A stretch of DNA of 63,973 nucleotides, filler included, from Rhizaria sp. SCN 62-66 (GCA_001724265.1; 3 parts of 3 records of this genome joined end to end with filler, not necessarily neighbours in it), one strand, 5' to 3'. Positions 900 through 54,310 are shown, numbered from the whole stretch's first letter. The notes: generated from the sequence alone by a model not told the origin. A program made the numbers and translations.

Positions 900-3800
900 A
901 TGGGCGGCAAGTTTTCCCGCGTGCAGTCCTACGACTGGCGCACGAGGGCGTACCGCGAAGTGTAGCCGTCGCTCCCCAGCGCCGCGCAGGCCATCTACCT
1001 GCCCTTCGACCCGCCCGCGCCGCCGCTCTCGGCCGGCTGGTGGGCCGACAAGTCCTCCCTCGCGTTCATCTACGGCGTCCGCGCCATCACGCCCGCGCTC
1101 GCGGCGTACCTGGTTGCTTGGACGGTGCTGCCCGCCGCGGCGCGGGCGTCGCAGCTCGGCGCGGCGGGGCTCCTGGCGGCGCTGCCGGCTGCGCTGCAAC
1201 GGCCGCTGCTGACGCTGCTCGTGGCCGCCTCGCGACTCATGCGCCCGCTCTTCGCTCTCAACGGCTGCAAGGCTGCTCACTCTGCGGCTGGGTCCGATGC
1301 GGCGACAGGAGTGCTGAATGCTAGTGCGAGTGTTGCAGTTGTACAGTCTCTCTTGACACTAATCACACGTGTCGGACGCTTGCTGCGGCCGTTGTCGGCA
1401 CTGCTGGCTCTGTTCCCGCGGCTGCTGACAGCACTAAACGAGCTCTCGATTGAGAAAGGTCTTTTGTCGATCTACTCTTCTCTCCTCACAAAACTTATTT
1501 CTCTATCACAGCTCGCCAACAACAGCAACAACAGCAACTCTGCAACCTCGGCAAGCTCAAACAAGAGCATCAGTAGCACTCTCAGCTTTGTCCTTTGCTC
1601 CAGTGCTAGCGCCACTACGCGCGCCAGTGCCACTGCGGCCGCGGCTTCAGCTGCGTCTGTGGGCCTGGCGAATCGGAGCCGCCTCGCGCGCTTGGGCGCA
1701 GTCCTGCTCACGGTCACTGCCCGGCTCTCCCAGCTCCTGCTGGCGATCCTCCCCGCGCGGCGCCACGTTGCACTGCTCTTCCGCGGCTTTGTCTATGCGC
1801 TGCGCGCCTGGTCAGTCGTCGAAGTTGCGTTCTACGGCTACTACCTGCACCGCCGGCGCGCGCTGACGAAGCGTTCCATCCCCGACGAGCTGCCGCCCAC
1901 GGCCGCGTTGCGGCGCGCGCACATCCGCCGCCTGCTCAACAACGTCATGGCGAGCGGTCGGTGCCCGATCCTGTTCATCCGCGCGTGGTACCGCGGCGCC
2001 GAGTTTAAGGACATCCGCCACGGAAACCTGCGCGAGTGGGTTTCTGGCTCTTTCTTCAACCGCGCGGTCGAGGAGTGCACAGAGGAGGAGGTCGCCGAGC
2101 TCGACGACACGATCGGGTACATCCAGCGCGCGACGGGGCTTGCGGCGTGCCGCGGATACAACAGTGCGGTGCCGTGCATCCGCTTCACGATGGATCCGCT
2201 CAACAGCGTCCACCGCCCGCTCGTCATGTACGCCGTGCTGCAGAGCACGGGGTACTTCGCCGGGCGCAACCTCTTCGCGCTGCTCGGCTTCAAGCAGGTC
2301 CAGGGCCCATTCTTCCGCTACTGGGTCCGCATTGCGCCCGGCAACGGCGGCGAGGAGCGGGCCAAGGCGCGCGGGCTGGCGCTGCAGCAGCAGAGGCTGC
2401 CGCCCGGCACTGTGCTGCGCGAAATGCCCAGCGACACGGCCGGCGCAGAGTTCGACAGCAGCACCAGCGCCAGCTGCGACAACTGGACGAACAGCAGCGC
2501 GAATGCGAGTATACGCGGGCCATATAGCAACATGGCGAGTTTCGACACCAATTACCCCGCGAACTCCTCGAGTGCCGGCAACAGCTTCGGCAGTGCTGGC
2601 TCAAGTGCGAGTGTGCCGAAGGCAACGGGTGTGTGGGACGAATTTGCACCTGAACACACCGCGTACGGCGCTGGTCGCCCTCGGCCTCAAAAGATCAACA
2701 GCAAGAACAATAGCAGCAGAGGCAATAGCTCGCGCTCGAGTGCAAACTCGAGCTTCAATCAGAACCAGCAAAACAGTGACCACATCAGCAGTACCTCTGC
2801 GAACGGCGGCGCTGGCGCAGAGTGGCCTAACTCTTCGCACTCGCGGCGGCCTAGCTTTGACCACGGCGCGTTCGCGGACCCTGTCGAGGCCGCTGAAGCC
2901 GCGGCGGGCGCCGTGGTCTTTTGCCACGGCATCGGCATCGGCGCGTGGACGTATATGCCGCTGCTGTACCAGCTCATCCAGCGCTACCCCCACCGCGACG
3001 TCTTCGTGCCCGAGTTCGACTACGTGTCGATGCGCCTGTCCGAGTACGTGCCCTCCGCGCGCCAGAACGCCTCGGGCGTGCGGCTCATGCTGGCCGAGTA
3101 CGGGCACGAAACGGCGGTGCTCATGGGGCACTCGTACGGCACGTTCGTCGTGAGCTACTGCCTCCGCTTTGCGACGCGCATTGTGGAACACGTGATCCTG
3201 ATCGACCCCGTGTGCTTCCTGATTCATCAGGTCGACGGCCCCTTCCAGTTCCTGTTCGCTCCGCCGTCGTGCGCGCAGTCGCGGATGATCCACTTCCTGG
3301 CGCAGACAGAGCTGGGCGTCGTGCACACGCTCTCGCGCAGGCTTTGGTGGTACCAGGTACGGCAAACCGCGTAACCTATAACAAAGTCAATTGCTTTGAC
3401 AACAATACTAACATGCAATTGAGTCCGCGTTTCATTGAATCTCGTTCAACTGTAAACATGTTATTTCTCTCTCTGACTCTCACAAACTTTACTTCATCTT
3501 TGTTTTCACTCACTATTATTCATCTCAGGCAATCCTGTGGGAAGACTGCATCCCCACGGGCTCCACGGTGGTGCTCTCTGCGCGCGACACGATCGTGCCC
3601 TCCGCGGCCGTGCGCCACTACCTGCAGCACTCGAGCGACCGTGTGCGCGTGCTCTGGCTTGAGCGCCTCGCTCACGCCGGCTTCATCGCCAACCCCGTCG
3701 CGCTGAACCAGGTGCTCGACTGCATTGCGCCCTTCACGCCGCAACCCTACGGTGTGACGCCCATCCCGCGGCCGCCGCGCGTGCCGTGCGCGCCGCCCTG

Positions 3801-6579
3801 CCCGGCCTCGGACACGAGCTTCGACGCGTCTCTGCTGTCGCCAGTCACGGCCAGCGTGCGCAGCGGGGCCGGCCACGGTCACAGTGCCCACGGTTTGTGC
3901 GTCCACGGGCACAGTGCTCACGGTCAGTGCGCTCATGGTCATAGCTCGGAGCATGGGCAGCCGTGCGGCGGCGCATGCGACGATGGTGATAACAACAGTG
4001 TTGATGTTGATGGCTATCACTATGGCCGTGTCGACACGATTCCTCTTGCGAAGCTGCCTCACAACCTGCGGTCTTCAGCCCCAGCATCTGGTGCGAGTGC
4101 TAACGCGAACACTAGCAACGAGGTCAACAGCAACACGGGCTGCGACGCGACTGGCAAGTCGAGTGGCGGCAACTCGTTTGTGTTGTCGCCGACGATGGCC
4201 ATTTCGTCCGCCGTTGCCGCAGCGGGGGCGCACCTGGCCTCGGCAGTGTCGTTCTTCCGCAAGCAAAGCACTGCGGCCGTCACTGATAACGATGTCAGCC
4301 CGAGCTCTGAGTCTGCGACCGTGAATGACAACGACGTTGACGATGCCAATGCGGACTCGGTTACTGCGACTGCGACGGTAGCCTCTGCAACCGCGACTGC
4401 GTCGATGCCGACTCTGACCGACGTGGGCCTCTCGACCGTCTTCCGCGTGCCCGCCCTGATCCCGGCCGCGGTCTCCGGCACCGGATCCGACGTGCCGGCC
4501 ACGATCGAGCACGACCCCACGCAGCCGCACCGCGCCGCGATCCTCTTCGGCCCGCTGCCCGGCGACGCGTACGGCGCGCGCACTGGCGGAGACTGTGCGA
4601 CCACTGCGGCCGACATCGTCACGAGCGTTCACACCAGCGATAATTGCTGTGATGCTAACCAAGACAGCAACAAGGTGTCGTTTGCTAAGCAGAACCTCTC
4701 TGCCTCTGACCAAGCCACAGCAATTGCTGCCGCTGCGGCAGCGACTGCGATCGCAGCGGCTACGTCTCTTAGCAACAACAACTCCAACTCGAGCGGACTG
4801 TCGGAGCTCAACAGTGGAAGTCCCAGCAGCGACAGCAAGAGTACTGTTAATGTCGGTTCTAGCGTTGGTGGCACTCCTGCTGTCGCGACGACTATCATTG
4901 TCGACGGTGTCCGCCGCTACGGTCACTCCGGCGCGCGCGTGTGCGCCGCGACGTGCGTGTCGGCGTGCTGTGTGCGCCGCTACTTCGCGCCCTTCGTCCC
5001 CACGAAGCTGCCCGGCGGCATTGCAGGCGCGGCGGCGCACCTGCGGGAGCACGAGGAAGCCAACGCTCTCTCGCGCAAGTTTGCCACCGCTCACGCGAAC
5101 GCCAACTTCAACGCTGACACAGAAGGTGGGGACGGTAACGGTGAAGGCAGCAGCTTCGACCGGAACGGGATGTACAGCGGACGCTGGGCTGATCGTAACG
5201 GCATTGCTCTGGCCCACGCAGACAGCGATGGCGATGAAGACTCCGAGCTGAAGACGCAGCAGCAGCAAAAACAACAACAACATCTGCAGTCCGTGAAGTC
5301 ACACGATTTTAGCCACAGAAGCACTTTGAGCACGTCGATTATTAGTAAGACTAGCGATACAGCCGATGTTGACACGAGTTTCGACTCTGTCGCTGTGGCC
5401 AACGCTGAGTGCACAGCCGCGGCTATCCAAGCCGCGGTCACTGCTGCCGGTCAGAACGTCAACGCTGGTGACCCCAACGTCAGCTTTAATGGTCACGACG
5501 ACTCGTTCGACGCAAGCTCCAGTGACTACCCGAGCAACGCTGGCGGTGGCGCCAGCGCGAGCGCGACTGCAACACCACGTGTTAGTAAACTGCAAAACTC
5601 GCCGTTCACTCCCAACAGCAGCACGGGCAACGCGGGCACTAGCAGCGTCGCTCGTGGCTCGGCGCATGCCCACTACCACAGCCGCGGCGGCAAGGGCCCT
5701 CGCGTCGAGTACGTGCCCCCGTCCGTGCACGCTGCGCTCAGCGCCGAGTCAGCGAGCATTGCTGCAGCGGCAACTGCAGCGGCCGCGGAGCGCGATGACT
5801 TGAGTGACGCGATGTCGACCGACAATCACTTCTTTAGCACGATTGCGCGCGCAAGCGGTGTTGCTATCAAAACGACGCCACAGGTTTCTAACAACAACGG
5901 TCGAGCGAACGCTGACTTCAGCAACACTGTTAGTGTGAACGACAACGTGTTCGTGAAGTCTCCGCTTGTTGTCATGATGTCTGCATCGTCTTCCGCGTCA
6001 TCGCTCTCCGGACTGTCAACTGCAAGCAGCAGCGTTACCGCGAACAACGCAGCCGCCAGAGCCACGAACCTTGCCGAGTCCAAGTGCGACTCTGGCTCCG
6101 TGAACAGTGCAGACGCTCGCGCAGGCTCTAACGTTAATGCCACAACGACGACGACAACGACGACGACAACAACCGGTGCCGGTCCTCGCCTCCGTCTCCG
6201 CTACAACAACGAAAACAACGCAAACACTGCCAACGTCACAGGCGACGCGAGCAACACACCGCACGTTCCCTCTCTAACTTCAGTGAACCCTAGCGACGAC
6301 ACATCAGCCGCGACGAGCCGCAGTCCTGATACTGCTGCTGCTGCTGTTGTGAACGAGAATGGTGACGCTGCAGCGGCGGTCGACGTGCACGGCTACTACG
6401 AGCGCAACTACGTCGCCCCTGTGCGCGCCAAGACCTTTGCGCCGCCCGCGCTGGACGAGCACGGCAACGAGGCGCGCTGCGGACCCACGCCCAAGCCGCT
6501 TGTGCTGCGCAACCTGCCCTCGCCGCACGGCGGGGCCGAGGCCACCGAGCTTGCCAGCCAGGGACTCCACTATGTCTGA
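900..6579 (+). CDS. Alpha/beta-hydrolase fold protein with hydrophobic N-terminal segments and a long low-complexity tail, ~1835 aa; in-frame TAG at 963-965
   Basis: Exons 900-3356 and 3529-6579; intron 3357-3528 (GTACGG..CAG, phase 0). Start MGGKFS. Motifs HGIGIG, GHSYG (nucleophile elbow), LIDPV, SARDTIV (candidate acid) and LAHAGF (candidate His). Ends TGA. Confidence 0.8.
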
Positions 6580-7153
6580 GCGCGAAGCTACGGGGTCTGT
6601 GACCGGCTTAAGCAAATCATGATGGTTTATGCTGTTGCGAACATGTTGAGTTGATGTTGTTTATTTTTACAAGTCATAGGGCAGGTCTGCGTCGCGCTGG
6701 CCTCAATCGATTATTTCTCCAACCAGATTCAATTAACTTTGTAAAGACGCACACTTTGCGCGTAGTATACGTTTCTTTCATCAACACTGGCTCGGCTAGA
6801 GCGTGTTACATTCTAGTTTGTTAATTTTAAGTTTCCCCCCTCTGTTTTAAATAATCGGACTTCGTTTTGTCTTAGCCTTTTTGGGCAGCAAAGTAACGTA
6901 AACCCAAACCATTCATTCACAGTGCATTGTACGTACACAGCACGTAGACTCAAACCATGATATCTAAGTGCCTCTCGACCGCATTGCGACATGAATACTT
7001 GTGATATCTTTCATTCCTCTGAATACAAATATCTTTTTGAATTGTACTCAGCAACAACAGCTAACAAGTACACATACAAGGCACTGTTAGGTTTGTCTAA
7101 GAAGACCTATAATCTTGATCCGTATGCCAGTTGTTCCCAGCGAGCACGCTTAC

Positions 7154-10100
7154 TCAACCAGAGGTAACACTGCTGCCAAACGAGTACGCGTCGCCGCTGG
7201 CCCCAGTGACAGCGCCGGTGCCAGCAGAGCCGAACTGGGCGGCACGGTACCGGACGCTGCCCGCAGCAGCGCCGGCCCTGCCCTTGGCGGCCGCGGGCTG
7301 CGGCTTGGCAGTGCCGGCGAGCAGCACGCTCGTGCCAGCCTTGGTCACGGTCTTGATGCTACTCGTGCCAGTGATAGCGCTCTTGTTGTTGTTGCTGTTC
7401 AGGATGCGTGAGACGATGTTGGCGCCGTTATGATACGCGTTCTCGTCGTTGTCAGCGCCACTGCTGCTGCGGCCGCTGCTGCTGCTACTGCTACTACTGC
7501 TACTGCGGCTGCTAGTTGTATTGGAGGCAAGGAGCACAGAGCCGCCGTGGCGTCCGTCGGCGGCAGCGGCGGCCGGCACGGCAGCGGCCTTGCGTGCGCG
7601 CTTTGCAGCAGGCGCCTTGGCACTAGAATCAGTTACTCCAGAGTCAGTAGCGTCGGCGTCAGTGAGCGCGTTGGAGTCAGTCCAGTCAGTGTTCTCAGTG
7701 CTCGCGTTGGTGCCAGCGTCAGAGTCGGCGTTTGAATGAGACTGAATACTCAGAGCGCGTTTGCGAGCTGCGGCTGCGAGCATTGTCGGCGAAGTTAAGC
7801 CGCGCGCAGAAGTCAAGCCGCCGGCCGGCGTCAGACCACTCAGGGTCTTAGATGCGTGAGCGCCAGAGCTAAAGCTAGAAGTTGAGCTGATGGTTGTGGC
7901 TGCAGCGCCAGCAGTGGGCGCAAAGGAAGTTAGGCCGCCTAGCAGCACGCTGCGCGGGGCGCCGGCGCCGGACCTATGCGTACTGCTGAAGCCGTGTGTG
8001 CCTGGAAATAACAGCGAGGAGGTGCCACCTGAACCGGCAGTGCTAGCAAGCAACAACGATGACGACGAAGAGGAGCTGCTAGAGAGCATGGAGGTGGACA
8101 TGGCAGCGCGTTCAGTCGACGCGCTTAAGGCACCCTTAGCAGTGGCGCCACGACTGTTGCTTGAATCGTCAGTGACAGTGCTGCTGCTGCCGCTGTTGTA
8201 GTGTTCAGAGTCAACGAAAGAGAATATACCGCCGCTCTTGGTCGCAGCCGCCGCGGCAACGCTCTTACTGACAGCAGCGTTCATCCTGCCCATCACCGCA
8301 GCGCCGCCGCTCGGCCTTCCTCTCGCGTTGCTTGTGTTCGTGTTGGCCGTGTTCTTGTCCCCTGCGACATCGATGCGGTGGACCGGCTTGCGCGAGGGCG
8401 CCGGCCCGCGCTTGAGCACGTCCTTGTACGTGTGCACAAGCTCGCGGCCCACCATCGCCGCGACGCACACGCGCACCGCCGCCTCAGCGCGCTCCTCCGC
8501 GTTCAGCCCGCTCACCGCTCCTGCACCGGTGTGCGTGGGGCGGGGGCAGATGCGCGCGACTGCGGGGGCGTGCGCGGCCGCCAGCGCCGAGACTGTGGTG
8601 CCTAGTGCAGCCGCGAGCACGTGGCGGCAGAAGGCGTTGAAGTCGTGCGGCGACACGGCGCCGAACGCGGCGGGATCGCGCTTGCGGACAGGCAAGCTGT
8701 GGTAGTCGGTGTAGTCGCTGCGCTCGAGGCCGCTGTCACTGTCACTTTCGCTCCCGCCTGCACCGGTCCTGGCGCTGGCACTGGCACTGGTGGCGCTGTC
8801 AGTCGCCGCCTTAGTCTTAAGGTGACTATGGGCGGCGGTATGGGCGGGCTGGCGAGCAGTCGCAGTGCCGGACTCACTGTCGCTGCTGGACGACTGTGAG
8901 GCGAGCTGGCTAGGGCTGAAGCGGCCCTTGGTCGCAGCACCCTTAGAAGTGCTCATTGCGCGTTTCGAGCTCGCTTGCTGAGTTGCAACTTTTGTTGCTC
9001 CAGTCACGGAGCGAGCGCTCTTGGTCCTAGTGTCACCGCTCTGGTGACTCTCGATGTCGTAGCTGCTGCCGGCGGCATTCTTGGCGACTCCACGCTTGCC
9101 GGCGCGGCGCTGAGTCATTGCGTAGCTGTCATCCTCGTCATTATCGTCGTCGATGATATAGCCGTTAGCGCCCGTGTCATCGTCGGTATCCTCAGTGAGG
9201 TGGTGGTCCAAGGCGCCCGCCGCGACGACCGAGACGGCCGGGGTGCGGGGCATCGCGGCGGCGGCCTCGGCCTCGCTGTCGTCACCGTGGCTGTACAGAC
9301 CGTAGCTGTAGCCGTGACTGCGGGCGTGGCTGGAGCTGTGAAGCGATGCGCCGGTGTCGCGCTTGTGAGAGTCCTTGCTCCGAGCGCTCTTGGGCCGGTC
9401 CAGAGTGAGATACAGCGGGCCCGTCGGCTGCGGCGCCGGCGCCTCGTAGTCATCGTCCTCGTCGGCAATTGTGCCGCTAATGCCGTCGCTGATGCCGCCA
9501 CTGACGCTGCCGCCGCCGCCGAAGGAACCAGCACCAGTGGCCGCGAGCTCGGCTTGCTCACGGTCGCTCGCGTCACCGCCGTTGCCGCCGTCGCCACTCT
9601 TGGACTCCGCGTCAAAGCGGCTGCTCCGACGGACACCATCGCCAACGCGACTGCTGTCACTAGTGAGGCTGGTGTTGTTCGCGACTTTGGCGCGCTTGCC
9701 ACCGGCACTCGCGACGCCCCCGGTCAGACTGGCGTTACTGCGGCTTTCACTAGCGTGCAAGCTTGTGTTGGCGTCGTTGCTGCTGCTCTGGAGCCGCTTG
9801 GAGCGCGCGGACCGCAGCGACAGCCGCTGCTGCATTGCCGTCGCCAGCCGCTCGCCGCTGCCAGTGCTTTGCGCTGTGGCCGCGGTGGCTGCCGAGCCAG
9901 TCGAGGCAACGGAAGCCGCGCCGACCGAGCCCGCGCTGTCGAGCACTGTAGGGCCGCGGCGCGGGCGCATGAAGCCAGTCAAACTGCTGCTGTTGGTGTT
10001 GATACTAGCGCTGCCGAGTGTGCTGGGGGCGAGTGACACGCGGGCATCACCGCCGATGTGGCCGCTCTTGTAGCCGTCGTCACCGCCGCCGAACTCGTCG

Positions 10101-11642
10101 TTGGAGTGATCGTCAGCGTCGTCGGCGAAGGGCGGCGGCGAGCCCCGTGTTATGGCAGTGGTCTGCGACAGGTTGGATGGCGACGTAAAGTCAACGCCAG
10201 CGCCAACACCAATGCCGTGATCGAGAGCAGTAGAATGACTGTGAGCGGCCCCAGTACTTGACTGCGACGCAGTGACCGTGACGCTGTGACTGCCGCCGCT
10301 GGCGTCAGCAGCGCCGTGGCCCGCGATCGCGCGCGCCGCGTCCCCGCGCAGCACGGTCGCTGCGTGGTACTCGCGGCCCTCGTCCTCCCCCCACCCGCGG
10401 GAGTCGTAGTTGCTGTTATGGGCGCTGTCTCCGAGGTCAAGCTCACCACCAGCGCTCGCGCTTGCACCCGAGTCATCGGCGCCATCGGTCATCGCCGCTC
10501 CTGCGCTTAAGGCGCCGTCAGCGCTCGCGTCGGCGCGGGATTTAGCAACAGCAGCGGAGCCTGAGGCGACTGCGCCCTCGACAAACGAGTCGGCAATAGA
10601 CTTCATCTTGACGGAGACTTCGTGGAACCGGGTCTTGACTTCGCCGACGCGCACCTTGAACGGGCGCTGCTCGAACACAAGCGCGTCGCTCTCGGCCCCG
10701 GGCCGGAAGTATTGCGGCTCGTAGTCCTCGGGCGTGATCCCGTCGCGGTACTGTAGCTTCACCGTGATGTACCGGTGTTGCGGCAGCGACTTGAGGGTCT
10801 GCGCCAGCGTCACGAGGGTGCGGATAAGGCGCACTGTCGAGTCGCGGATCTCCTCTTTGGTGGTGACGGGCGCGGTGTGGCTGGCGCCGCCCTCGGTCGT
10901 GTGCGTCATCGACATCGCTGTGAGGGGAAAGTCACGAAAGTAGAGTAAAACAAGCAGATGTTTAAGGAAAATTGGAAAATATTGCTCTCAATGATACAAC
11001 TATAAAGAAAAAATGCATAACTAAGTTATTTTAAGTTGCCGCTGGGTTTTAAATAGAGCGTTATGTTTCAAATTGAGACGCAACGTACAGGGACCGAGAC
11101 AGAGCCCGTCGGCCTCTTCGGGGTAGTCAACGTGGAACTGGTAGCACTCGAGCAGCGTGTTGCGGTCCTCGCCCTTGGCGTAGACGGCAAACACCACGTC
11201 TGACAGGTAGTGCTTGTCGAGCGCGTCGAACACGCCCTGCTCGAGCCAGTTGATCAGGAGCTGGGACTCGGGCCGCGTGGGCAGCAGGGTGCGGATCGTG
11301 AGGCCGGTGAGCTTCTTGTCCTGGAAACAGTCCTCCGGAAAGAGGTTACGGAGGTAGACGATGCTGCTGATTGCCGTGCGGACCAGGTTCTGTGGGTGAA
11401 AAGTCGAGTTTTTCAGGGCGTTGGGAGCGAGTGAAAGGCGAGTATGAGCAAGAATGCTAGAGCAGAGAGGGACGTTGCTGAGCTGCGAGGCCAAAGCAGG
11501 AAGATAGATCGGACGTCATGAAATAGCACCGCAACATATTGGAAACAATGCGTACCTTGACGAGAGTGGTTGATTGCTGTACTGTAATCTCGTCCTGAAC
11601 GGTGCGCTGGCGCTGGAGTTGTGCGCCTCCGAGAGTCGCCAT
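7154..11642 (-). CDS. HOP1: Meiotic HORMA-domain protein (HOP1/ASY1/HORMAD-like), ~1383 aa
   Basis: Exons 11642-11556, 11389-11089 and 10917-7154 with frame-consistent GTACG..CAG introns. HORMA motifs: NLVRTAISSIVYLRNLFPEDCF, WLEQGVFDALDKHYL, LLECYQF, LIRTLVTLAQTLKSLP, ITPEDYEPQYF, VGEVKTRFHEVSVK. Long Ser/Ala-rich tail. Ends TGA. Confidence 0.85.
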
Positions 11643-12321: not shown

Positions 12322-12390
12322 TCATGCGCCCTTGTTGTGATCATCATCGTCACTATCGTCCCCGACCTCCGCGTCGCCCATCATCATCTG

Positions 12391-12439
<49 letters not shown>

Positions 12440-16596: not shown

Positions 16597-17546
16597 ATGG
16601 CTGCACGCATTTCCTCTACCGTCAGGGCCGTGATCATGGACATTGAGGGCACTGTGGCCCCGATCTCGTTCGTTACCGAGGTTCTCTTTCCCTACGTCAC
16701 CAAGAACCTCCCCGCCTACCTCGACAAGACCTGGGACACCGCTGAGACCAAGGTACGCCTCATGCGCAAGCAAAGCAAACGCAGAGTATAATTTCCGCGT
16801 GTTTTATGTATCATGTATTCCGCCTTTACGTGCGAAACCTCTTTTCCTGCATGAATACTACCCCAAATCATCATGCTACCTCAAACTCACGCATTCCTCG
16901 TTTATCATCCATAAACCCTTGTTTCCGCGCTATGTAGGCCGACATCGCCGCGCTGATTGCCCAGTCCGAGGCCGACGCCGCGGCCGCCGTGCCTGGCCTC
17001 GTGCCCATTCCGGCCGCCGCCGTCGCGGACCCGGACTCCAGCGTGCTGAAGTCGGCTGTGCTGGCCAACGTCGCCTGGCAGATGGCGCTGAACCGCAAGA
17101 TGGGCGCGCTTAAGGGGCTCCAGGGCCACGTCTGGCGCGACGCATTCACCTCGGGCGCAGTCAAGGGCGCGATCTACGACGACGTCGCCGCCAAGATGCG
17201 AGAATGGCATGAGGTGGGCGTGGTGAAGCAGTACATCTACTCCTCGGGCTCGGTCGAGGCGCAGAAGCTCGTCTTCGGGCACTCGGTGCACGGTGACCTC
17301 ACTCCGCTGCTGGCGGGCTACTACGACACGGCCGTGGGGCACAAGCGCGAGCGCGCGGCGTACGACGCCATCCTGCGCGACCTCGGGCTGGCGGGCCACG
17401 AGGCCGTGTTCCTGACCGACATCTACGAGGAGGCAGTCGCGGCGGACCAGGCCGGGATCAAGACCGTGCTGCTGCTGCGCGAGGGCAACGCGCCGCTGCC
17501 CGAAGACAACGCGTTCCCCACGGCCACGAGTTTTGACATCCTCTGA
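16597..17546 (+). CDS. ENOPH1: Enolase-phosphatase E1 (HAD family, methionine salvage), 254 aa
   Basis: Exons 16597-16752 and 16938-17546; intron GTACGC..TAG. Motifs DIEGT, ISFVTEVLFPY, LKGLQGHVW, YIYSSGSVEAQKLVFGHS, FLTD..EAVAA. Ends TGA. Confidence 0.93.
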
Positions 17547-17755
17547 GTGAGTGCGCTCTGAGAGGACACGTCCGTCGTGTGATGATGTGATCATAGGTTT
17601 GTGCTCGTGTGAAGTTGTGGGTCTATTTATCGAGTGTTCTTTGAGTGAAGCTAGCCTTAGTTACAACGTTGTTGTCGGGTCAGAGAGCACACTTGATGTG
17701 TGATAACTGAGACTGAATTACTGGTACAACCGACAATTCATAATATCAGAGACAC

Positions 17756-27601: not shown

Positions 27602-27701
27602 NNNNNNNNNNNNNNNNNNNNNNNNNNNNNNNNNNNNNNNNNNNNTTAATTAATTAANNNNNNNNNNNNNNNNNNNNNNNNNNNNNNNNNNNNNNNNNNN
27701 N
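27602..27701. other. Artificial contig spacer (Ns with TTAATTAATTAA)
   Basis: 100-nt N block with a central all-frame stop linker at 27646-27657. Confidence 0.97.
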
Positions 27702-27798
27702 TTGACGATTATTTCACAGAGATTTCTATTGTGGAAGTTACCTGCCGAAAACTGCGTTTTTGGCGTTTTTTAGTTGACGCTACATAGGGGTTACATAC

Positions 27799-38467: not shown

Positions 38468-40876
38468 ATGGAGGCCAGTCAGGACGCCGTGCGCGTCGTC
38501 GCGCGCTTCCGTCCGTTCAACTCGCACCAGGCCAAGACGCGAGGTGCTGAGACTGATGAGCACGGCCGCCCCGCGCTTGGCGGCCGGCCCATTACCGTGG
38601 CCACTGAGGAGGAAGACACATTCCTGCTCCAGTTCGTTGATGAGCGCTCGATCAACCTGCGCGTGCCTGCCGCTGACAAGGGCGGTGCCAAGAAGAAGCC
38701 CGTGCCGTATACGCTGGACCGCATCTTCGACGCCAACTCGACACAGGAGGGCGTGTTTAAGGAGGTCGCCGCGCTGACCGTGCGCGACGTGCTTGACGGC
38801 TACAACGGCACCATCTTCGCCTACGGCCAGACCGGTTCCGGCAAGACTCACACCATGTTCGGCGTGCGCGGCGGCCCGCCCGAGCTGCGCGGCCTCATTC
38901 CGCGCGCCGCGCAGGCCATCTTTGACGGCATCGACAAGATGGACGACGTCGTCGAGGTCACCATCACGTGCTCGTTCCTCGAAATCTACCGCGAGCAGAT
39001 CCGTGACCTGCTGTGCCCCAAGAACATCGGCCTCAAGGTCCGCGAGGCGCCCTCCGGCGACGTCTACGTACAGGGTCTCAGCGACGAGTTCGTGACTTCA
39101 CCCGACGAGCTGCTCGATGTCGTCGCCGAGGGTGACAAGTCGCGCTCTGTCGCCGCCACGAACATGAACGAGACGTCGTCGCGCTCGCACTCGGTGCTCA
39201 TCGTCATCGTCACGCAGAAGTCGCGCGACGGCTCCGTCAAGGTTGGCAAGCTCAACCTGGCCGATCTCGCCGGCTCCGAGCGTATTGCGCACACGGGCGC
39301 CACGGGCCAGACGCTCGAGGAGGCCAAGAAGATTAACCAGTCGCTCTCTTCGCTGGGTAACTGTATCAATGCGCTGACGGACCGCACGCGCACGCACATT
39401 CCGTACCGCGACTCGACGCTGACGTACCTGCTCAAGGACTCGCTCGGTGGTAACACCAAGACGACGCTCATGATCTGCTGCTCCTCGGACCCCTACAACG
39501 GGCTCGAGACCATCTCGACACTCAAGTTCGGCCTCCGTGCCAAGAACGTCAAGAACACTGCCAAGGTCAACAAGCAGAAGTCCGTGGCCGAGCTCGAGGC
39601 GATGGTGGCGAACCTGCGCGGCGAGCTGCTCCAGTCCTCGAAGCACAACGTGCTGCTGCGTTCGCTCATCAACGAGATGCACGCGCACGCCGTCGCCTCG
39701 GGCTACGGCGAGGGCGCTCCGCGCGACCCTACCTCGGGCCCGCCGCCGACGCTGCCGCCCGCGGCCGTGGCCGCCGTCAACGCGGCCATCGACGCGCTGC
39801 GCGAGGCCGCGGGCAAGATCCCTCTGCAGATCAGCGACGCTGACAAGGCCGCTGCCAAGTCGGCCGCATCCGGCATGACCGCCGCCGATGACGCCGCGCG
39901 CGAGCGCGCCGCCGCCGCCGCGCGCGCCGCCGCCGAGGAGGCCAAGCGCGCCGCGGGCGCTGCGGGCGCCGGTGCGGACGACGACGACGACAACCTGTCG
40001 CCGTGGGACGCGCGCGACGCGGACGGCGAACCCTTCACGGAGCCCGACGCACGCGCGCTCTCTGCCGCGGGCGGCGCGACGGCCATGTCGCTGTCGGCGC
40101 TGTCCGACTCGCAGTACCACGGCGACATCTTCCGCTACCAGGAAAAGCTGGCCGAGGCCGAGGTCAAGGTACGCGAGCTGGCGGCCGCGAAGCAGAACCT
40201 CGAGGACGACCTCAAGTCAGTCCGCGAGAAGCTGGTCGAGATGAGCAAGCAGGAGGAGCTGCGTCTGCAGAAGACCATGCTGGCCAACGTACAGGAGTCA
40301 CCCTCCTTGCGCCCCGTGTCCGCGATGTCGGCGCTGGCGAAGCTGTGCTCGACGCCCAAGTCGGGCTCAGCCGCGGCGGCCGCGTCACCCAGCCACGCCC
40401 GCGCGGCCATGTCGCTGTCGATCGACGAGGAGCCCGTGGAGGAGGCGGAGCCCGAGGATGACTACGACGGCGGCGGCTTTGGTGCCGACGAGGGCGACGA
40501 GGATGTGGCCTCGCCCTGGGGTGCCGACGACGACGACGAGGACGCCGTTGCGCAGCACGCCGAGGAGATCAAGCAGAAGGTCAACAATAGCGAGCTCACG
40601 ATGGACCAGGTCACCGCGGCGGCGGCGCGCGACCAGCGCACGATCGCGGAGCTGGTATCCAAGAACTCCGAGCTCGAGGCCAAGATCGCCGAAATGAAGG
40701 CGACGTGGACGCGCTACCTCGACATGGTCATGGAGTCGCAGATGCCCGCCGAGGTCAAGAAGACGCCCAAGATCGTCAAGCCCGTCCGCGCCAAGCGCTC
40801 TTTTGTCGGCGCTGGTGCCGGTGGTGCCGCGCGCGGCGGTGCAGCGGGCGCGCGCTCCGTCATCTCGCCCAAGTAA
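38468..40876 (+). CDS. KHC: Kinesin-1 (conventional kinesin heavy chain)-like motor, 802 aa, intronless
   Basis: P-loop GQTGSGKT, NETSSRSH, DLAGSE, HIPYRDS, SLGGNTKT. Coiled coils and tail motif PKIVKPVRA resembling the kinesin-1 IAK motif. Ends TAA. Confidence 0.9.
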   Translation: MEASQDAVRVVARFRPFNSHQAKTRGAETDEHGRPALGGRPITVATEEEDTFLLQFVDERSINLRVPAADKGGAKKKPVPYTLDRIFDANSTQEGVFKEVAALTVRDVLDGYNGTIFAYGQTGSGKTHTMFGVRGGPPELRGLIPRAAQAIFDGIDKMDDVVEVTITCSFLEIYREQIRDLLCPKNIGLKVREAPSGDVYVQGLSDEFVTSPDELLDVVAEGDKSRSVAATNMNETSSRSHSVLIVIVTQKSRDGSVKVGKLNLADLAGSERIAHTGATGQTLEEAKKINQSLSSLGNCINALTDRTRTHIPYRDSTLTYLLKDSLGGNTKTTLMICCSSDPYNGLETISTLKFGLRAKNVKNTAKVNKQKSVAELEAMVANLRGELLQSSKHNVLLRSLINEMHAHAVASGYGEGAPRDPTSGPPPTLPPAAVAAVNAAIDALREAAGKIPLQISDADKAAAKSAASGMTAADDAARERAAAAARAAAEEAKRAAGAAGAGADDDDDNLSPWDARDADGEPFTEPDARALSAAGGATAMSLSALSDSQYHGDIFRYQEKLAEAEVKVRELAAAKQNLEDDLKSVREKLVEMSKQEELRLQKTMLANVQESPSLRPVSAMSALAKLCSTPKSGSAAAAASPSHARAAMSLSIDEEPVEEAEPEDDYDGGGFGADEGDEDVASPWGADDDDEDAVAQHAEEIKQKVNNSELTMDQVTAAAARDQRTIAELVSKNSELEAKIAEMKATWTRYLDMVMESQMPAEVKKTPKIVKPVRAKRSFVGAGAGGAARGGAAGARSVISPK

Positions 40877-41842: not shown

Positions 41843-41859
41843 CTGGTTCCTAAAAATGG
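41843..41859 (+). promoter_or_regulatory. Candidate upstream motif CTGGTTCCTAAAAATGG, copy 1
   Basis: Exact 17-nt match to 52125-52141; both lie about 380-450 nt upstream of a + strand ATG. Confidence 0.4.
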
Positions 41860-42219: not shown

Positions 42220-45200
42220 ATGGGGGTTTTCCGGCGTGCTTGGTTCACGCCCCTCGCGGCGCTCGCCGTCGCCCTGGCCGCTTTTGCCATGGGCGACGCC
42301 TCGTTCGCGCCCGCCTCCGCCACGGACTCCTTCTTCGACGTCTCGGCCCAGAACACCGACGCCTTCACCGGCATGGATCGCCTGTCGCTCGACGACGCCC
42401 TTGTCGCCGGCCAGCGCCGCCTGATGCAGACCAACTCGGTGCTCGACGACGCCCGCCGCCGCATGCGCCAGATGCGCTCCGGCACCGACGGCAGCGCCGC
42501 CGCGGCGGCTCCCACGCCCGCGCCGGCACCCCCCGTGACGCCCGTGACGCCCGTGACGCCCGCATTTACGCCGCCGCCTCCGCCGCCGCCGGTGGTGCCC
42601 GCGGGCCCGCCGAAGAACCGCAAGGTCGAGTTCCAGATCCACGTGGTGCCGCACTCGCACACGGACGCCGGGTGGATCATGAGCTACCACGACTACTACA
42701 ACCGCCGCGTGCGCACAATCATCACCACGGTCGTCGAGACGCTCTACCTGGACGAAGTGCTCCGCTTTATCTGGGCCGACGTCGGCTTCTTCGCCGTGTG
42801 GTGGCAGGAGGCGCCGTCCGAGCTGCGCGCGAAGGCCAAGGCCATCGTGGACCGCGGCCAGATGGAGTTCGTCAACGGCGGCTTCGTCATGAACGACGAG
42901 GCCAACGTCAACTACGCCCAGTTCCTGGACCAGATGTCGCTGGGCCACCGCTTCATCAAGCAGACGCTCAACACGACCGCGCAGTACGGCTGGTGCATCG
43001 ACCCCTTCGGCGCGTCGTCGTCGCAGGCGACCATGTACGCGCAGATGGGCATGAAGGCCGTGGTGCACGCGCGCATCGACGAGCGCATGAAGAAGATGCA
43101 GATGAACGGCACCAACACGGGTGACCTCACCTCTGCCGGTCTGTCGTTCGTGTGGCGCGCGAACCCGGCGCAGCACGGCGTCGGCTCGGACATCTACACG
43201 CATATCATGCCCAACGGCTACACTGCGGCGAACCACCTGCACTGGGAGACGGAGCCGTCGCCGGGCTCGCGGCGGCCGTGGAAGGACGTGGCGCTGCAGT
43301 CTGACTCTGACAAGGTGTACGTGTTCCGCACGATGATGCAGGACATGGCCATCTACATCAAGTCGATGCGCACGCCGCACGCCATCCTGCCCTGGGGCTC
43401 AGACTTCTCCTTCACCAACTCGCGCAACATGTTCACCAACATGCGCCAGCTCATCACGCTGCTTAACAACCCGAACCCGCAGACGTGCCAGGGGCTGTGC
43501 ACTGAGGAGGGCCTCACCAGCACCATGGATCTGCCGCTGATGGAGGACGTGCTGCCGCCCGTGCTGCCAGGCCAGAACAAGGCCGTCGACGTCGTCATGA
43601 AGTTCCGCTTCTCCACGCTCGACGAGTACTTCTCCGCCGTCCACGGCTTCGCGTACAACTTCTACAAGCCCGAGGGCGCGGGCGCGCCCACTGCGGGCCC
43701 GCGCGGCGCCGTGACCCGCACGCTCACCTCCTTCTGGGCCGCCCCGGGCACCGCCAACGCCGGGCTCGCGGGCGATGCGCCCGTGTCGCGCCCCGGCTAC
43801 GTGACCTTCCGTCGCGGCTTCCCCGGCTGGCCGGTGTACTCGAGCGAGGACCTGTTTCCCTACGCTGACGAGTACTGGCGCCCTCCGCCGAACCGCCTGC
43901 GCTGGTGGACGGGCTACTTCGCCTCGCGGCCCGCGCTCAAGCAGTTCGAGCGCCGCCAATACCGCTCGCTGCGCGCCGCCGAGGCCGCGATGGCGCTGGC
44001 CCCCGGCGAGGGCTCGCTCGACGTGCTGCCCGGCGTGGTCCCCAACTCGGCCGCCGCGGTCCCCGGCTCGCCCGACTGGACCGCGGCCTCGGCCGACGCG
44101 GGCGGCGCGGGCGTGACGGACCAGACGGCCTCGCGCCGCGTGGGCGTCTTCACCAGCTTCTCGGGCTCCAACTACCCTTACGCGGCGCCCTCGACGACGA
44201 GCGCGGCCTCGGCCAAGATGTCGCAGTGCGCCTGGGTGTCCCCGCGCGCGCGCTCGCTGCTGGCCGTGGCGCGCGACATCATGGCCGTCATGCAGCACCA
44301 CGACGCCATCACAGGTACATCCCCGGCGCGCACGATCCTCGACTACCACCACCGCATGGTGCGCGGCCACGCCGCCGGCGTCGAGCTGCTCTTCGGCGCC
44401 GTCGCGCGCATGCTCAACACGCCCTCGCAGCTGGCCGCCACGCCGGCGCAGTTCGCCGAGGCGCTCACGGCCGCCGTGGCTAGCTACACCGGCGGCGCCA
44501 TCACCGCGACGACCCCCGAGGTGCAGGCGCTGCTGCAGGCGGCGCGCGCGGTGCCCGTCGCGCCCTCGGGCGCCAACGGCGGCGACAGCAACAACGACAA
44601 CCTCTTCTTCTCGCCGGTGCTGTCACAGACGGGTACGAGCTGCGCCGCGCACCCCGTCAACGGCTACGCGGCGCGCGTGCCCGAGGTCGTCCCCGTCGCG
44701 GTGTACAACCCCGTGGCGTGGGAGGTGCCGGGCCAGGTGCTGCTGCTGCGCAACGTGACCACGCGTGACGTGGTTGTGACCGACTCGAATGGCGACGTGC
44801 TCGACGCCGACGTCGTCCCCGTCGAGCTCATGGAGCAGGACACCTCGAGCGCGCGCGCCGTGCTGTCGATGGCCAACCCGCTGGCCCCGCCCGTGGGCGC
44901 CACGGGGCAGCCCGCCGAGACGACGGCCGACTGGCTGCGCACCTACACGCCGCGCACGGCGGCGTCGACCGCGGCCTGCGTCACCCCCGGCGCGGCCACG
45001 CCCACGGGCCTGTTCAACGTCTTCGTGCAGCTGCGCAAACCGCTGCCCGCGCTGGGCGCCGAGGTGCTCACGCTCTATCTCAACACGCACCGCGAGCCCT
45101 GCTGCCTCATCGCCGACATGCAGCGCGCCGGCGCGCTCGACTACGCGCGGCCCCCCGCCTTCTACCAGGTACGTCGCGTGACAGGTCTTTTTGACATCAA

Positions 45201-48200
45201 ATTGACAGGAATTCGTTCAATTGTATTTTTGTTATTTGTATATTTGTACTACTCAAATTTTGTCAAATTTTGCTCATCTTGATTTTGTCTTTTTTTTTTT
45301 TTTCCAATTTGCTTCTTTATTCGCCCGTTCAGCCTCAGCCCGGCCAGGCCTCTGCCGGCACGCCGATGCAGACGCCCGTGTTCGCGGCGACGGCCTACGC
45401 GCAGTGGGCGGCGGTGCAGCCCTGGGAGGTGGACGGCGCGTCGTGCTTCCAGTCGATCGCCAACGACGGTGTCCTCGTTGACTTCGTCGGCAAGTGCCCT
45501 GACAACCTGCGCAAGTACGTCGCCATCGGTGTCCACGGGTCGAGTATCACGACCAACGTGACGGCCACCACGGCGGGCGTTTCCGTCGCGGCGGGCGCGG
45601 GCGGCGCCGTGACAGAGCCCTTCGACGTGTCGTTCCCCTACTACGTGCCGCACAATATCGAGTCGGACGGCGTGTACACACTGCACATCAACGGTGACCC
45701 CGTCAACAACAACGGCGTGCTGTCCCCGCCGCAGAACCTGGGCCGCGCCAAGTCGGCCGAGTACTCTGTCGCCGAGACCAAGGCCATCGTGTACAAGGGC
45801 CGCGTCGTGCAGGGCTTCACGCAGTTCGCGGACTCGTCCTCTGCCTTCCCCTTCATCCACTCGTTCCGCGCGCTCCGCGGCGGCGCCGGGCTCGATGGCG
45901 GGCTCCAGGTCATGCCGCTCACGCGCGCGCAGAACCAGATGCTGCGCTTCCACACCTCGATCGACAACACTGTGGTGCTGGATGGCACCTCGAAGCTGCA
46001 CGGACTGCCCGCCGACGGCAACGCGACCTCGACGCGCCGCGCTATGTACAACGACGACCTCGGTCTGCAGATGCAGCGCCACTTCTCCGACCCCACGACT
46101 AACGACGCCGGCAGCTTTTACCCGTTCATCTCGCGCGTGGCCTTCCGCGACGAGTTCCCGCAGACGCTGCAGGCGCACCCGAAGCCGCTTCGTGGGCACC
46201 GCCAGCTGGTGATCGTGGCGCAGCAGGGCGCAGGCACATCGACGCCCGACAAGGGCCAGCTCGAGGTCATGGTGAACCGCTTCTCCGACCGCGACGACGA
46301 GCTGGGCATGGGCGAGCCTCTGCGCGATTCGTCCACCTTCACTTTCACGTACCGTGTCTACTTCAACGCCTTCGTCGAGGCCACCATGGCCTCTCCCGAG
46401 GATGCGTACGTGGCGGCCACCTCGGCCATCCTCTTCGGCGCCAAGGCCGGCTCCGACGGCGCGTGCGGCAACGACAACTTCCACGCCGAGTCCATCCTGG
46501 TCAACAACCCGCCGTTCGTGGCCCCCGCGCCCGGCGTGCCCGCGGCCTACGCGCTGGCTGCCGCCGACGCCGTCGCCGGCCGCCCCACGCCCGCGCCCGG
46601 CGCGCTCGCCGCGCTGCCCCCGCTGACCGCGGCGGACCCGCTCGTGTCGCGCCTCGCGCTCACGCTCGCCTCGGTCGCCGCCGTGTCGGCTGCGCGCCAG
46701 GCCGCGTCGGGCGCCGCGCCCGCGGTGACGCCCGCCAACGACGCCGTGGCGCCGCTGCTGCGTTTCTCTCCGCTGGCACAGCCGCTGCCGCGCTGTGTGC
46801 ACGCGCTGACCGTGGCGCCCATGTGCGACGTCTTCACCAACGCCATCCGCGACTCGACGGACCCGGTGCTGCCGCGCTGGCCCGCACCGCTGGGCTTCAA
46901 CGACTACTCGGATGCCGTCGCCGCCGTGGTGCCCGCCGAGTTCGCGGCGCGCGGCGTCGTGGTCCGCGCCGAGCGCCCCGTCGCGGGTTTCCCGCTACCC
47001 GCCTCGCTCGCGCCGCCCGCGTCGGGACCCGTGCCGACCGCGCCGCCGCCGCTGCCAGTTGCGCTGCGCTTCATCAACCTCGACTCGCGCGCCATCTTCC
47101 GCTCCTCGATCAACTCCAAGGCGCTCGACGAGCGCTTCGCGCAACTGCGCCCCGCCGGCGCCGCCAACGGCGTCCTCACCTCTGGCACGGCTATCGCCAA
47201 TCTCCCGCTCTCGGCGCCCGCGTCCGTGCCCTTGCAGGCTGCCTTCGCCTTCGACCTGGCCGCGCCCGTCGCGGCCGGCACCGCCGCGGGCGCGACCGGC
47301 GGCGCGGGGCTCATCCTCCGCGGTGCCCCGCAGCGCGTGGGGCTCAACCACGTGGCGTACGCGCTCTCGCCTTCGGCCAAGCCCGCGACGGCGACCGTGG
47401 TGCCACTCGACGCGTCCGCGCTCACGGGCGCTTCCCCGGCCGCGGCCGACGCCTCCGACGCGCTCTTCACGCTCACTGACTCGGTCGCGCTTGCCGCGCA
47501 CACCGTGGCGCCCTTCTGCCCGCTCTACCCGGCGCGCACCGACATCGAGATCGGCCGCCTGGGTTTCGCCATCCCGGCGCGCCGCCAGCCCGTGCTGCAG
47601 CCCTACGCGCGCGAGACGCCTACGCGCGCCGGCGCCGCTGTCTCGGCGTCCGGCAAGGGGCTCATCACGCTGCCCGGCTCCGGCTCGGGCCCGCGCGTGC
47701 CCGCGGGTGTGACTGCCGCGCTAGCGGGCTTCTCGGCCAACCCGCGCCGCGCGATGTTCTACTCGGGCGCGTCCGTCTTCGAGGCCTTCTCGCGCCACCT
47801 GGACAGCAAGCTGGGCTGGGACGCCGGCTCCGCCAACACCGGCGGCGACGCACTGGGCCAGTGCACGGCGCACCTCTACACGGGCTCCGGCGTGCCCGGG
47901 CTGCCGCTCACGCTCGCGGCCAACAACCCGACGCTGTCGCGCGCGGCCTCGGCCGGCTTCTCCACGGTCCAGCGCCTGCGCGCCTTCTCGCCACGTGCCC
48001 TGGGCCTGCCGCTCTACCACCCGGTCAAGTCCGTCGACGACGGCGCGTCGTGGCCCAACGCAGCCAACGAGTCCGCGCCCGTGACGCAGTACATGCTGCC
48101 CTCCACCACCGCGCTCTATGACGCCTCCGCCTCGTCCTACTTTGCGCCGCTGCCCTGGTGCCACTGCGGCTACCAGCACCTGGTGGAGCCCGCCTCGGCG

Positions 48201-49790: not shown

Positions 49791-49829
49791 GCCCCGTTTG
49801 TTGGCCCCGTTTTTTGGCCCCGTTTGTTG
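49791..49829. repeat. Short tandem repeat, three copies of GCCCCGTTT(G/T)TTG
   Basis: Directly visible in intergenic DNA. Confidence 0.75.
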
Positions 49830-51957: not shown

Positions 51958-52124
51958 ACTGGCGAATATCCGCCCCCAATGGTAGCGCAAAAAAAGTAGT
52001 AGCTAGGCCGCACGGGCGCGCAAGTGATACTATAAGATTTCGTGACGGGACGGAATGTATGCACGGGGATGACTTAGGGAAAATCTGCCTCAAGAGGGCT
52101 TTGTTTCTCGAGCGGCGTGGCAGC

Positions 52125-52141
52125 CTGGTTCCTAAAAATGG
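52125..52141 (+). promoter_or_regulatory. Candidate upstream motif CTGGTTCCTAAAAATGG, copy 2
   Basis: Lies in the divergent intergenic region between the orphan (-) and the Rab-like gene (+). Confidence 0.4.
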
Positions 52142-52573
52142 TAGGGCGTGATAGACAGCGCCAAGAAAGGACCTCAGAATGATTCGAATTGCGACAGTTC
52201 AATTGACTATAATACGTTTGTAGCGGCGTACCGTGAACTTTCTTTGGCTTTTTTATCGCGTCACTCTTTCAGCACTCGTAGCTGCGCGGTCTCAGAATCT
52301 TATTGACCTATTTTGCTTGAGATCAAGGATTGTGCCTCGTGCCGTACCTCATTTTCTTACAAAGCGCGTCGCTCGCGTTCTACTTTCTTGTTGCCAGATT
52401 TGCAATTTGAATACTTACAACACGCTCACATTTTATTATCTCCATACTGCTATATCATAGACCCTTTCGTTCTTCCCTCACATCAGAGGTGTGAGAAGCC
52501 CATCCTAAGTCCGGTTACCAACCTCTTGCTCGACCCCGACTCAGCGTCCGTTTCCGGTCTCCACACCTCGACC

Positions 52574-54310
52574 ATGCTTCCGGTCCCTACCTCGTCTTCC
52601 CAGTCGAGCGGTGGTGACTCCTCTCCCTCCGCGGGCGGCCCCGTGCGCCGCCGCGCTCGCTCGACGTCGCGCACGCCGCGTCAGTCGATCGGCGGCGGCC
52701 CGGCCCCCATCCTCACTGACGGTGAGGAGCTCGACCACATGTTCAAAATCGTCGTTTACGGTGATGCTGACACGGGCAAGACGAGCATCCTGCGCCGCTT
52801 CCTCTCAAACGAGTTTTTTGACACGTACGAGCCTTCGAAGGCCTCCGAGGTGCTGACCAAAGTTGTTTCGGTGCAGGACAAAATCAGTACCAAGAATGAC
52901 GCCTTCCGCATTAAGTGCGACTTCTGGGACCTCGCCGGCGCGAGCAAGTTCCGCCCCATCTCTCTGCCTTTTGCCAAGGGCGCCAACGGCTGTGTACTCG
53001 TCTACTCGGTGACCAACCGCGCGTCGTTCGAGAACATCGAGCGCTGGCTCAAGGACGTCTCCGGCGTCGTCGGCAAGGCGGCCTCGCCCGTGGACGAGGT
53101 CGTGTACGTGCTCGTCGCGCATAAAACGGACCTCGCCGTTGCTACACCCGACGCGCGCATGGTGTCGACGGCCGAGGGCGAGGAGCTGGCCGCCAAGTCG
53201 GGCCTCAAGTACGCCGAGGCATCCGCCAAGACAGGCGAGGGCGTCGACGAGGCCGTGCGCCTGGCCGTCGAGAGCGTCTTCGAGCAGCGCTACGAGGTCA
53301 TCCTGCAGGAGCGCGCGCGCGCCCGCGAGGCGCGGCTGAAGCGGCAGCTGCAGGCGCGGCTGGACTCGAAGGACCTGCGCCAGATGTATGCAGCGATGGA
53401 GGACGAGGAGGCCGCCAAGCAGGGCCGCGCGCTCACCGACGAGGAGCGCCTCGCGCTCGCCGATGAGGCGCGCCGCCGTAAGGAGCGCGAGGAGGAGCTG
53501 CGCGCGGCCCAGGCGCGTCGCAAGGCCGAGGAAGAGGCTGCCGAGGCGGCCCGCAAGAAGGCCGAGGAGGAGGCCGCCGCTGCCGCCGCCAAGAAGAAGG
53601 CGGAGGACGATGCCGCCGCCGCTGCCGCCGCCGCTGCCGCCGCCGCCGAGGCCGCGCGTCAGGCTGTGCTGGACGCCTAGCGCGCTGCCGCTGCCAAGGC
53701 TGCCGCCGAGGCCGCCGCGGCTGAGGCCGCCGCCGCCAAGGCCGCCGCAGACGCCGAGGAAGAGGCGCGCCGCCGTGATGAGCTGCTAGCTGCCGCGGCC
53801 GCCGACGCTGCGGCCGCCGAGTACGAGCGCTCGCTGGCACTGCTGGACGCCACTGCGGCCTCGGACGCGGGCGTGCTGGCGATGAGAGTCGACGACGAGG
53901 ACGACGAGGCGCCCGTGACGTGCCTCGAGACGATCTTCTGCCCGCTGCTGTCCTTCGGCGTCGTCGTGTTCATCATCGCGCTGCCGCTCATCGTGGCCAC
54001 TTTCCCGCTGTACCTCATCGCGCTGGGCATCTACCTGGCGCTGGGCCACCAGGTTGTGCCGCCGCGCATTGCTGCCCAGCGCCGTCGCCGCCGCGCCGCT
54101 GCCGCCGAGCGCGCGCGCTACGCGAAGAGCAAGCACGTCGCTGCGGGGGGCCTCAACGGCGACGTTGAGGCCGGCCACGGCCATGGCGCGACCGCCACCG
54201 GCGGGGTCCAGTTCATCCCCCCGAACAGCAGCAGCATCAGCGGCAACAAGGTTGTCGGCGCCACCGCCAACTCCAAGGCCTCCAGCAAGGGCTACGGCGC
54301 GCTGCTCTAA
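52574..54310 (+). CDS. Divergent Rab-like small GTPase with Ala/Glu/Arg helical stalk and C-terminal TM anchor, 578 aa; in-frame TAG at 53678-53680
   Basis: FKIVVYGDADTGKTS (G1), WDLAG (G3), HKTD (G4), EASAK (G5). The helix continues across the TAG into the in-frame ORF 53873-54310, which has a long hydrophobic segment. Ends TAA. Confidence 0.82.

Follow-up and report, generated by a model that had tools for sequence, protein, structure and literature searches.

In-frame UAG codons point to a probable nuclear code with UAG as sense and UAA and UGA as stops in an uncultured GC-rich eukaryote from wastewater metagenomes

Nuclear genetic codes that separate UAG from UAA are rare: according to the available excerpts of two reports, none was known before 2017, and the known ones belong to a handful of lineages, mostly ciliates (PMC5304391; PMC11687900). 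The excerpts of PMC5304391 describe the fornicate Iotanema spirale, in which UAG encodes Gln, UAA and UGA are stops and 204 in-frame UAG codons were found in 126 genes, and the rhizarian exLh (Sainouroidea), in which UAG encodes Leu, with 384 UAG codons in 71 genes and Leu at 95% of the hyperconserved UAG columns; UAG was rarer in some exLh gene classes, which the authors took as a sign of less efficient decoding. Phyllopharyngean ciliates with UAG as Leu (or, twice, Gln), Protocruzia with Gln and Scotinosphaera with Ser are described in the excerpts of PMC11687900, in which ciliate UAG-only cases came from metagenome-assembled genomes and suppressor tRNA(CUA) genes were reported for two of them. 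Our searches of open-access papers and bioRxiv preprints turned up no account of UAG reassignment in a wastewater eukaryote. Here we analyse a stretch of 63,973 bases (the window; GC ~62%), in which five genes each carry one in-frame TAG, and argue that UAG is probably decoded as an amino acid and no longer ends genes in the source organism, UAA and UGA being kept as terminators. Metagenome runs of several studies, on bioreactors, wastewater and activated sludge, contained DNA of the window, which makes its source an uncultured eukaryote represented by metagenome assemblies alone.

The five TAGs had been located, with their strands, by an earlier inspection of the DNA (the sequence-only reading), and all five positions were confirmed. 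They lie at 963–965 (plus strand; codon 22 of g1, an alpha/beta hydrolase gene, in a short N-terminal stretch), 19305–19307 (plus strand; codon 184 of g2, a Kelch gene), 28136–28138 (minus strand; codon 1333 of g3, a multi-Sushi gene, in an insertion in a Sushi module), 34889–34891 (minus strand; codon 848 of g4, a PH-FYVE-C2 gene, in a disordered tract) and 53678–53680 (plus strand; codon 369 of g5, a Ras/Rab-like GTPase gene, in an Ala-rich coiled coil), and are confined to the first two of the three contigs that make up the window. Exon models comprising 16,787 codons contained these five TAGs and neither TAA nor TGA, in agreement with the rarity of TAG and the lack of other internal stops noted earlier for some 17,000 codons. 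To follow coding potential across the TAGs, we used a codon-usage score trained on eight other open reading frames (ORFs) against intergenic DNA. Downstream of all five TAGs, the next 100 codons were free of stops and had frame-0 scores of +0.22 to +1.11; after all 12 TAA or TGA sites tested the score was -0.45 to -1.27, with 2–8 further stops downstream at 11 of the 12 sites and just 36 codons left at the twelfth. In g1, G+C content at third codon positions (GC3) was ~0.9 in the 21 codons before the TAG and 0.94 in the 100 codons after it (score +1.06, no stops), and the next in-frame ATG lies 113 codons past the ATG at 900. Downstream of the g3 TAG, GC was 0.61–0.66 with no stop in 100 codons, although the piece past the TAG, searched alone, gave a weak Sushi match under the Pfam cut-off (E 0.041). 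The coding score was +0.89 before and +0.69 after the TAG in g4, and +1.14 and +1.11 in g5, where GC3 was 0.87 and 0.86, respectively. Each affected gene has a single TAG and no frameshift, and GC3 and coding score are kept downstream, so that the usual signs of a pseudogene were not found. The local GC around the TAGs was far above that of introns (0.31–0.40, see below), which argues that the TAGs are not intronic. A strict, unbiased scan took in all stop codons flanked by 60 open codons on either side and required frame 0 to score best among all six frames on both flanks; among its 154 candidates (51 TAG, 87 TGA and 16 TAA), TAG 19305 and TAG 53678 passed, and none of the 103 TGA and TAA sites did. 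For the TAGs of g1, g3, g4 and g5, the case for continuous coding sequence is one of coding statistics only.

The sequence-only reading had counted 11 gene ends, never TAG, on the assumption that the genes are free of introns. That assumption proved wrong: spliceosomal introns of 164–205 nt (GC 0.31–0.40) are present, with donors such as CAG/GTACG or GCG/GTAAGT (the slash marks the exon boundary) and acceptors ending in YAG, and four of the supposed ends (TAA 3372, TGA 22194, TAA 27791 and TAA 33089) lie in or at introns. In g1 (900–6579, plus strand; Pfam Abhydrolase_6), an intron of 172 nt (3357–3528, CAG/GTACGG...CTCAG/, GC 0.37) restores the frame between the exons 900–3356 and 3529–6576, which are followed by TGA 6577–6579, whereas g2 (18756–27601, plus strand) consists of the exons 18756–22101 and 22287 to the contig end, separated by an intron of 185 nt (22102–22286, CAG/GTACGC...CTCTTAG/, GC 0.40), and codes for a secreted Kelch-repeat protein with Kelch families in both parts. 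These introns merge g1 with an ORF at 3439–6576 and g2 with a Kelch ORF at 22205–27601 that reaches the contig end. An intron of 205 nt (33028–33232, minus strand, GCG/GTAAGT...GTGCAG/, GC 0.36) joins the two exons of g4 (32818–37432, minus strand; exons 37432–33233 and 33027–32821; Pfam PH, FYVE and C2), which ends at TGA 32818–32820. The gene g3 (27794–32134, minus strand; Pfam Sushi, E 4.4e-41) is truncated at its 3' end by the edge of the contig, where TAA 27791–27793 sits in a splice-donor-like CAG/GTATGT, and g5 (52574–54310, plus strand; Pfam Ras, E 3.5e-34), whose product has the Ala-rich coiled coil and a hydrophobic tail, ends at TAA 54308–54310.

After this recount, ten terminal stops were accepted, six TGA (6577, 17544 and, on the minus strand, 7154, 12322, 32818 and 50605) and four TAA (40874–40876 on the plus strand, in the kinesin gene, 49377, 54308 and 63863, the last of which lies 110 nt from the end of the window and is less sure as a gene end), and none is TAG. 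Nine ends had 100 codons left downstream, and these showed either a coding score of at most -0.69 with 2–8 stops or a GC of ~0.39; composition collapsed past TGA 6577 of g1 and past TAA 54308 of g5 (8 stops in the following 100 codons), and GC fell to 0.39 past TGA 32818 of g4. Two of the ends adjoin splice-donor-like hexamers, TGA 17544 (TGA/GTGAGT, 17544–17552) and TGA 7154 on the minus strand (TGA/GTAAGC, 7148–7156); both were kept as true ends because no coding resumes within 300 nt downstream. Counts of TGTAA and AATAAA motifs in 3' regions were uninformative. The distribution of TAG between in-frame and terminal stops (5 and 0), compared with that of TAA and TGA (0 and 10), differed significantly (Fisher P = 3.3e-4).

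Homologues of g2 provided evidence of another kind. A HMMER search with g2 over 1.84 billion representative proteins returned 109 proteins at E <= 0.001, including g2 itself, which was stored as two pieces, P0003 (residues 1–183) and P0001 (residues 220–1146), having been cut at the TAG by gene calling with the standard code. Four family members, P0004 (3754 aa), P0011, P0012 and P0021, aligned without a gap across the g2 TAG column, with high posterior probabilities for P0004, P0011 and P0012, which implies that both halves form one domain and that the TAG stands for exactly one residue. No similarity was seen between the N-terminal part of g2 and the downstream Kelch ORF. The homologues, 2302–4671 aa long, belong to a family of very large secreted Kelch proteins that is encoded by multiple genes and represented in several assemblies. 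One of them, P0011, was traced to a metagenome contig of 1650 nt (L001), which carries a paralogue of g2: the stored protein stops at TAG L001:1235, beyond which the reading frame runs on (MYRGA-(TAG)-GTFCTVSARPA). Ten other family sequences, nine of them distinct, aligned column for column with this motif (YRGxxG[ST][YF]C), and the closest to the L001 paralogue, P0014 (55% identical, 159/287), reads YRGAPGTFCTVSARPA at the same place. On L001, GC3 went from 0.73 upstream of the TAG to 0.82 downstream of it and fell to 0.43 past a later TGA. The sixth TAG, in a conserved motif and on a different contig, is the strongest single evidence that TAG is translated. The scan of contigs with P0011 was the sole one to return related DNA; scans of metagenome contigs with g4, of genome contigs with the kinesin and g2, and of viral contigs with g2 were empty. 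For g5, residues 1–200 of g1 and residues 430–1447 of g4, no homologue across the TAG was found, but low-complexity words filled the candidate lists, so that these blanks say nothing about relatives, and the g1 search matched its own gene only. Within the g2 family, P0012 and P0005 lie on the same 77-kb contig, P0002 and P0004 / P0110 are further members, and at least one other member is stored as two pieces, split by a TAG or an intron.

The TAGs were also compared with assembled contigs of four DNA runs (X1–X4) and of a polyA metatranscriptome (X5). TAG 28136 was found with 0 differences in X4 record 17 (a 3350-nt contig from an independent DNA run) and X1 record 4, and TAG 34889 with 0 differences in X3 record 11 and X1 record 4; taken together, the same TAGs recur in assemblies from three studies. 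In line with this, TAG-terminated fragments of g2, g3 and g4 occur on several Logan and ENA contigs, among them the 847-aa fragment of g4 (P0113) on four contigs, some of which may be the same samples reassembled. A 377-nt contig of the polyA-RNA library (X5 record 25) covered TAG 28136 with 0 differences and no gap. At least this one TAG is therefore unspliced and unedited in an RNA-library contig. In two intergenic bins, X5 depth (0.08 and 0.61) fell below that of most genic bins, which weakly supports an RNA and not a DNA origin for X5; a loose end of X5 at 45148 did not match the predicted end of the GH38 exon at 45168 and supplied no spliced RNA control. Variant sequences were seen over g4 in X5 (35654–36449; 24 differences in 806 nt, ~3%) and over GH38 in X4 (43063–43445; 15 differences in 383 nt, ~4%), and the later samples are home to a second strain or a close relative. 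Among the 19 listed differences of the g4 variant, 14 fell at codon position 3 and none at position 2, a pattern that indicates purifying selection in the part of g4 that precedes its TAG.

Which amino acid UAG would specify was addressed at the two informative columns. The g2 column holds F (P0011), A (P0012), T (P0004) and F (P0021), and the L001 column P in five distinct homologues, R (g2), T (P0005) and S (P0022). Gln, which had been favoured from the sequence contexts, received no support, as neither Q nor W occurs among these 12 residues. Summed BLOSUM scores over the two columns ranked P, T, S and A at the top and W at the bottom, Q and L falling in between, by margins too small to choose by; on these columns, Trp appears the least likely residue.

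Taken together, the homologue-bridged TAG of g2, the TAG of L001, the RNA contig and the continued coding composition support the proposal that UAG is translated and that UAA and UGA terminate, and we consider this probably correct. UAG would then no longer be an efficient terminator and would be read as one amino acid in ordinary nuclear genes, presumably, by analogy with the known UAG-only codes, through a tRNA with a CUA anticodon combined with an eRF1 that recognises UAG poorly. The reassignment may be at an early or still partly ambiguous stage, which would fit a codon that is rare, mostly stands before C and occupies weakly conserved positions. Tentatively, and with more doubt than confidence, we propose a narrower version, an independent and early capture of UAG in a non-ciliate, GC-rich eukaryote, in which UAG has gone from gene ends and re-enters genes rarely, with a preference for C at +4 (the base after the codon) and for tolerant positions, encoding a small residue (Ser, Ala, Thr or Pro-like) and not Gln or Leu.

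Several observations weigh against reading UAG as a reassigned codon. At the GC3-rich codon usage of this genome, 63–66% of random nonsense substitutions would produce TAG, and five of five nonsense codons being TAG has a chance probability of ~0.10–0.12; the absence of internal TAA and TGA, although confirmed in the exons, is thus weak evidence alone and discriminates less than had been assumed. The lack of TAG among ten ends is a result from a small sample, with P ~0.06 or 0.11 if TAG made up 25% or 20% of stops, respectively. The strict two-flank test was passed by two of the five TAG sites: TAG 34891 missed by a narrow margin, beaten by the antisense frame in an Ala-rich stretch, whereas TAG 963 failed for its short upstream exon of 21 codons and TAG 28138 for the weak local codon bias in g3. 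The earlier remark that four of the five TAGs are followed by C was confirmed, and compared with 20.7% C at codon position 1 this is an excess (P = 0.008; 4/6 and P = 0.019 when L001 is included), as is also expected from leaky termination. The informative columns showed no single consistent residue, no tRNA or Rfam match was found in the window, where no decoding machinery was seen, and TAG is far less frequent than in exLh or Iotanema. Finally, coverage by an independent study and by RNA exists for one site only (28136), and contigs drop minor variants.

The main rival to a reassigned UAG is context-dependent leaky decoding, in which UAG continues to end many genes elsewhere in the genome, and near-cognate tRNAs or a weak suppressor read through it at these internal sites where the context permits, the full-length protein being only part of the output. 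The +4 bases would suit such a mechanism, with C at four of the five TAGs and G at 7 of the 12 tabulated TAA and TGA sites, as would the rarity of TAG and its mostly weakly conserved or low-complexity positions, and no more than ten terminal stops were examined. However, the TAGs occupy codons 22, 184, 848, 369 and 1333 of long genes, deep inside the genes and not at their ends, where inefficient readthrough would lose most of the product, and none of the ten ends is TAG. Neither a shared downstream motif, including the CARYYA type, nor unusual downstream RNA structure was detected after the TAGs (z-scores of +0.37 to -1.60 at six sites), so that C at +4 was the only feature of programmed readthrough found. 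We therefore regard leaky decoding as unlikely, and reassignment of UAG as the better account of these genes.

Less probable still is that the TAGs are recent nonsense alleles, either in young pseudogenes or as one allele of heterozygous sites picked by the assemblers. The share of TAG among random nonsense mutations makes five of five unremarkable, and contigs may hide a second allele; on the other hand, about 12 genes would have to include five with a nonsense codon each, once per gene, without frameshifts and with codon bias intact for hundreds of codons, the same alleles would have been assembled in three studies and a paralogue on another contig (L001) would have been affected likewise, and no TAG was seen as a terminal stop. 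RNA editing before translation, for example A-to-I conversion of UAG to UGG as in filamentous ascomycetes, would mean that TAG is never read as UAG and would explain why TAG is the sole in-frame stop; the available excerpts on fungal editing describe a preference for U at -1, so that UAG is often a target, and 71 'pseudogenes' with such UAG editing in F. graminearum (PMC11156358, PMC10776026). Here, five of about 12 genes are affected, compared with those 71 in a whole fungal genome, nothing places the organism among fungi, Trp fits worst of the 20 residues and is absent from the 12 homologue residues, and TAG 28136 is unedited in X5 record 25, although a contig may hide partial editing. Editing is accordingly very improbable. 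That the TAGs are sequencing or assembly errors, or lie in unrecognised introns, is scarcely credible: introns had indeed been overlooked initially, but the sequences are identical in independent assemblies, the GC around the TAGs is far above intron GC, an RNA contig crosses 28136 without a gap and homologues align position by position on either side of two TAGs. The last two observations also excluded tiny TAG-containing introns.

The window further contains matches to a HORMA protein, a kinesin and a GH38 alpha-mannosidase, with introns predicted at 10918–11088 (minus strand) in the HORMA gene and at 45169–45332 in the GH38 gene, which spans two reading frames. The genes are long, with a GC3 of 0.7–0.9, and the intervening regions have 33–50% GC. 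At least three introns among about 12 genes argued against a kinetoplastid origin, and atlas searches with the kinesin and g2 yielded no usable taxonomy. The three contigs are joined by artificial spacers at 27602–27701 and 55308–55407, each made of 44 N, TTAATTAATTAA and 44 N, in which TTAATTAATTAA carries stops in all six frames; since the window is a concatenation, adjacency across the spacer points has no meaning. X1 depth was ~1000–1800 over the first ~40 bases of contig 2 (27750–27793) and ~34 elsewhere on that contig, and this end of the contig resembles a repeat or a shared element. An ORF at 16938–17546 (plus strand) resembles what we take to be the C-terminal part of an enolase-phosphatase; it is without an N-terminal exon, and the AT-rich, stop-dense stretch upstream makes at least one further intron likely. 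The N-terminus of g1 (MGGKFS, 900–917) resembles an N-myristoylation signal, a likeness that favours ATG 900, upstream of the TAG at codon 22, as the real start.

If UAG is indeed sense in this genome, an abundant uncultured wastewater eukaryote would supply an independent data point on the uncoupling of UAG from UAA. The rarity of UAG and its bias to weak termination contexts may show what reassignment looks like early on, and such a genome, if caught at that stage, would offer a natural snapshot of the transition debated by codon-capture and ambiguous-intermediate models. A practical consequence is that gene callers using the standard code split genes at every TAG, and public protein collections already contain the fragments. 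As far as the excerpts of the cited sources describe the known systems, the window resembles Iotanema, a non-ciliate nuclear genome in which UAG is the sole in-frame stop and genes end in UAA or UGA only; there, however, Gln stands at conserved columns, whereas here five UAG codons occur in 16,787, Gln is absent from two columns and the organism is a GC-rich eukaryote from wastewater metagenomes. The exLh code shares UAG-only reassignment with UAA and UGA still terminating, but Leu is a loose fit to the g2 column (F/A/T/F) and a poor one to the L001 column (P/R/T/S). UAG was likewise reassigned independently, with UAA kept, in the phyllopharyngean ciliates, Protocruzia and Scotinosphaera; compared with ciliates, the window has a GC of ~62%, long genes and introns of 164–205 nt, and in our own general judgement of these three features it is unlike a ciliate genome. 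In Condylostoma and karyorelict ciliates, a codon is stop or sense by context, at which the C at +4 hints here, but there the same codon also ends genes, in contrast to none of ten ends in the window. The ascomycete A-to-I editing systems resemble the window in having genomic in-frame TAGs and full-length proteins (PMC4817773, PMC10776026, PMC11156358), but they restore Trp, whereas here there is no Trp, the RNA contig is unedited and a far larger share of genes is involved. Set beside these systems, the genome described here would be one more member of a rare known type of code, possibly at an unusually early stage.

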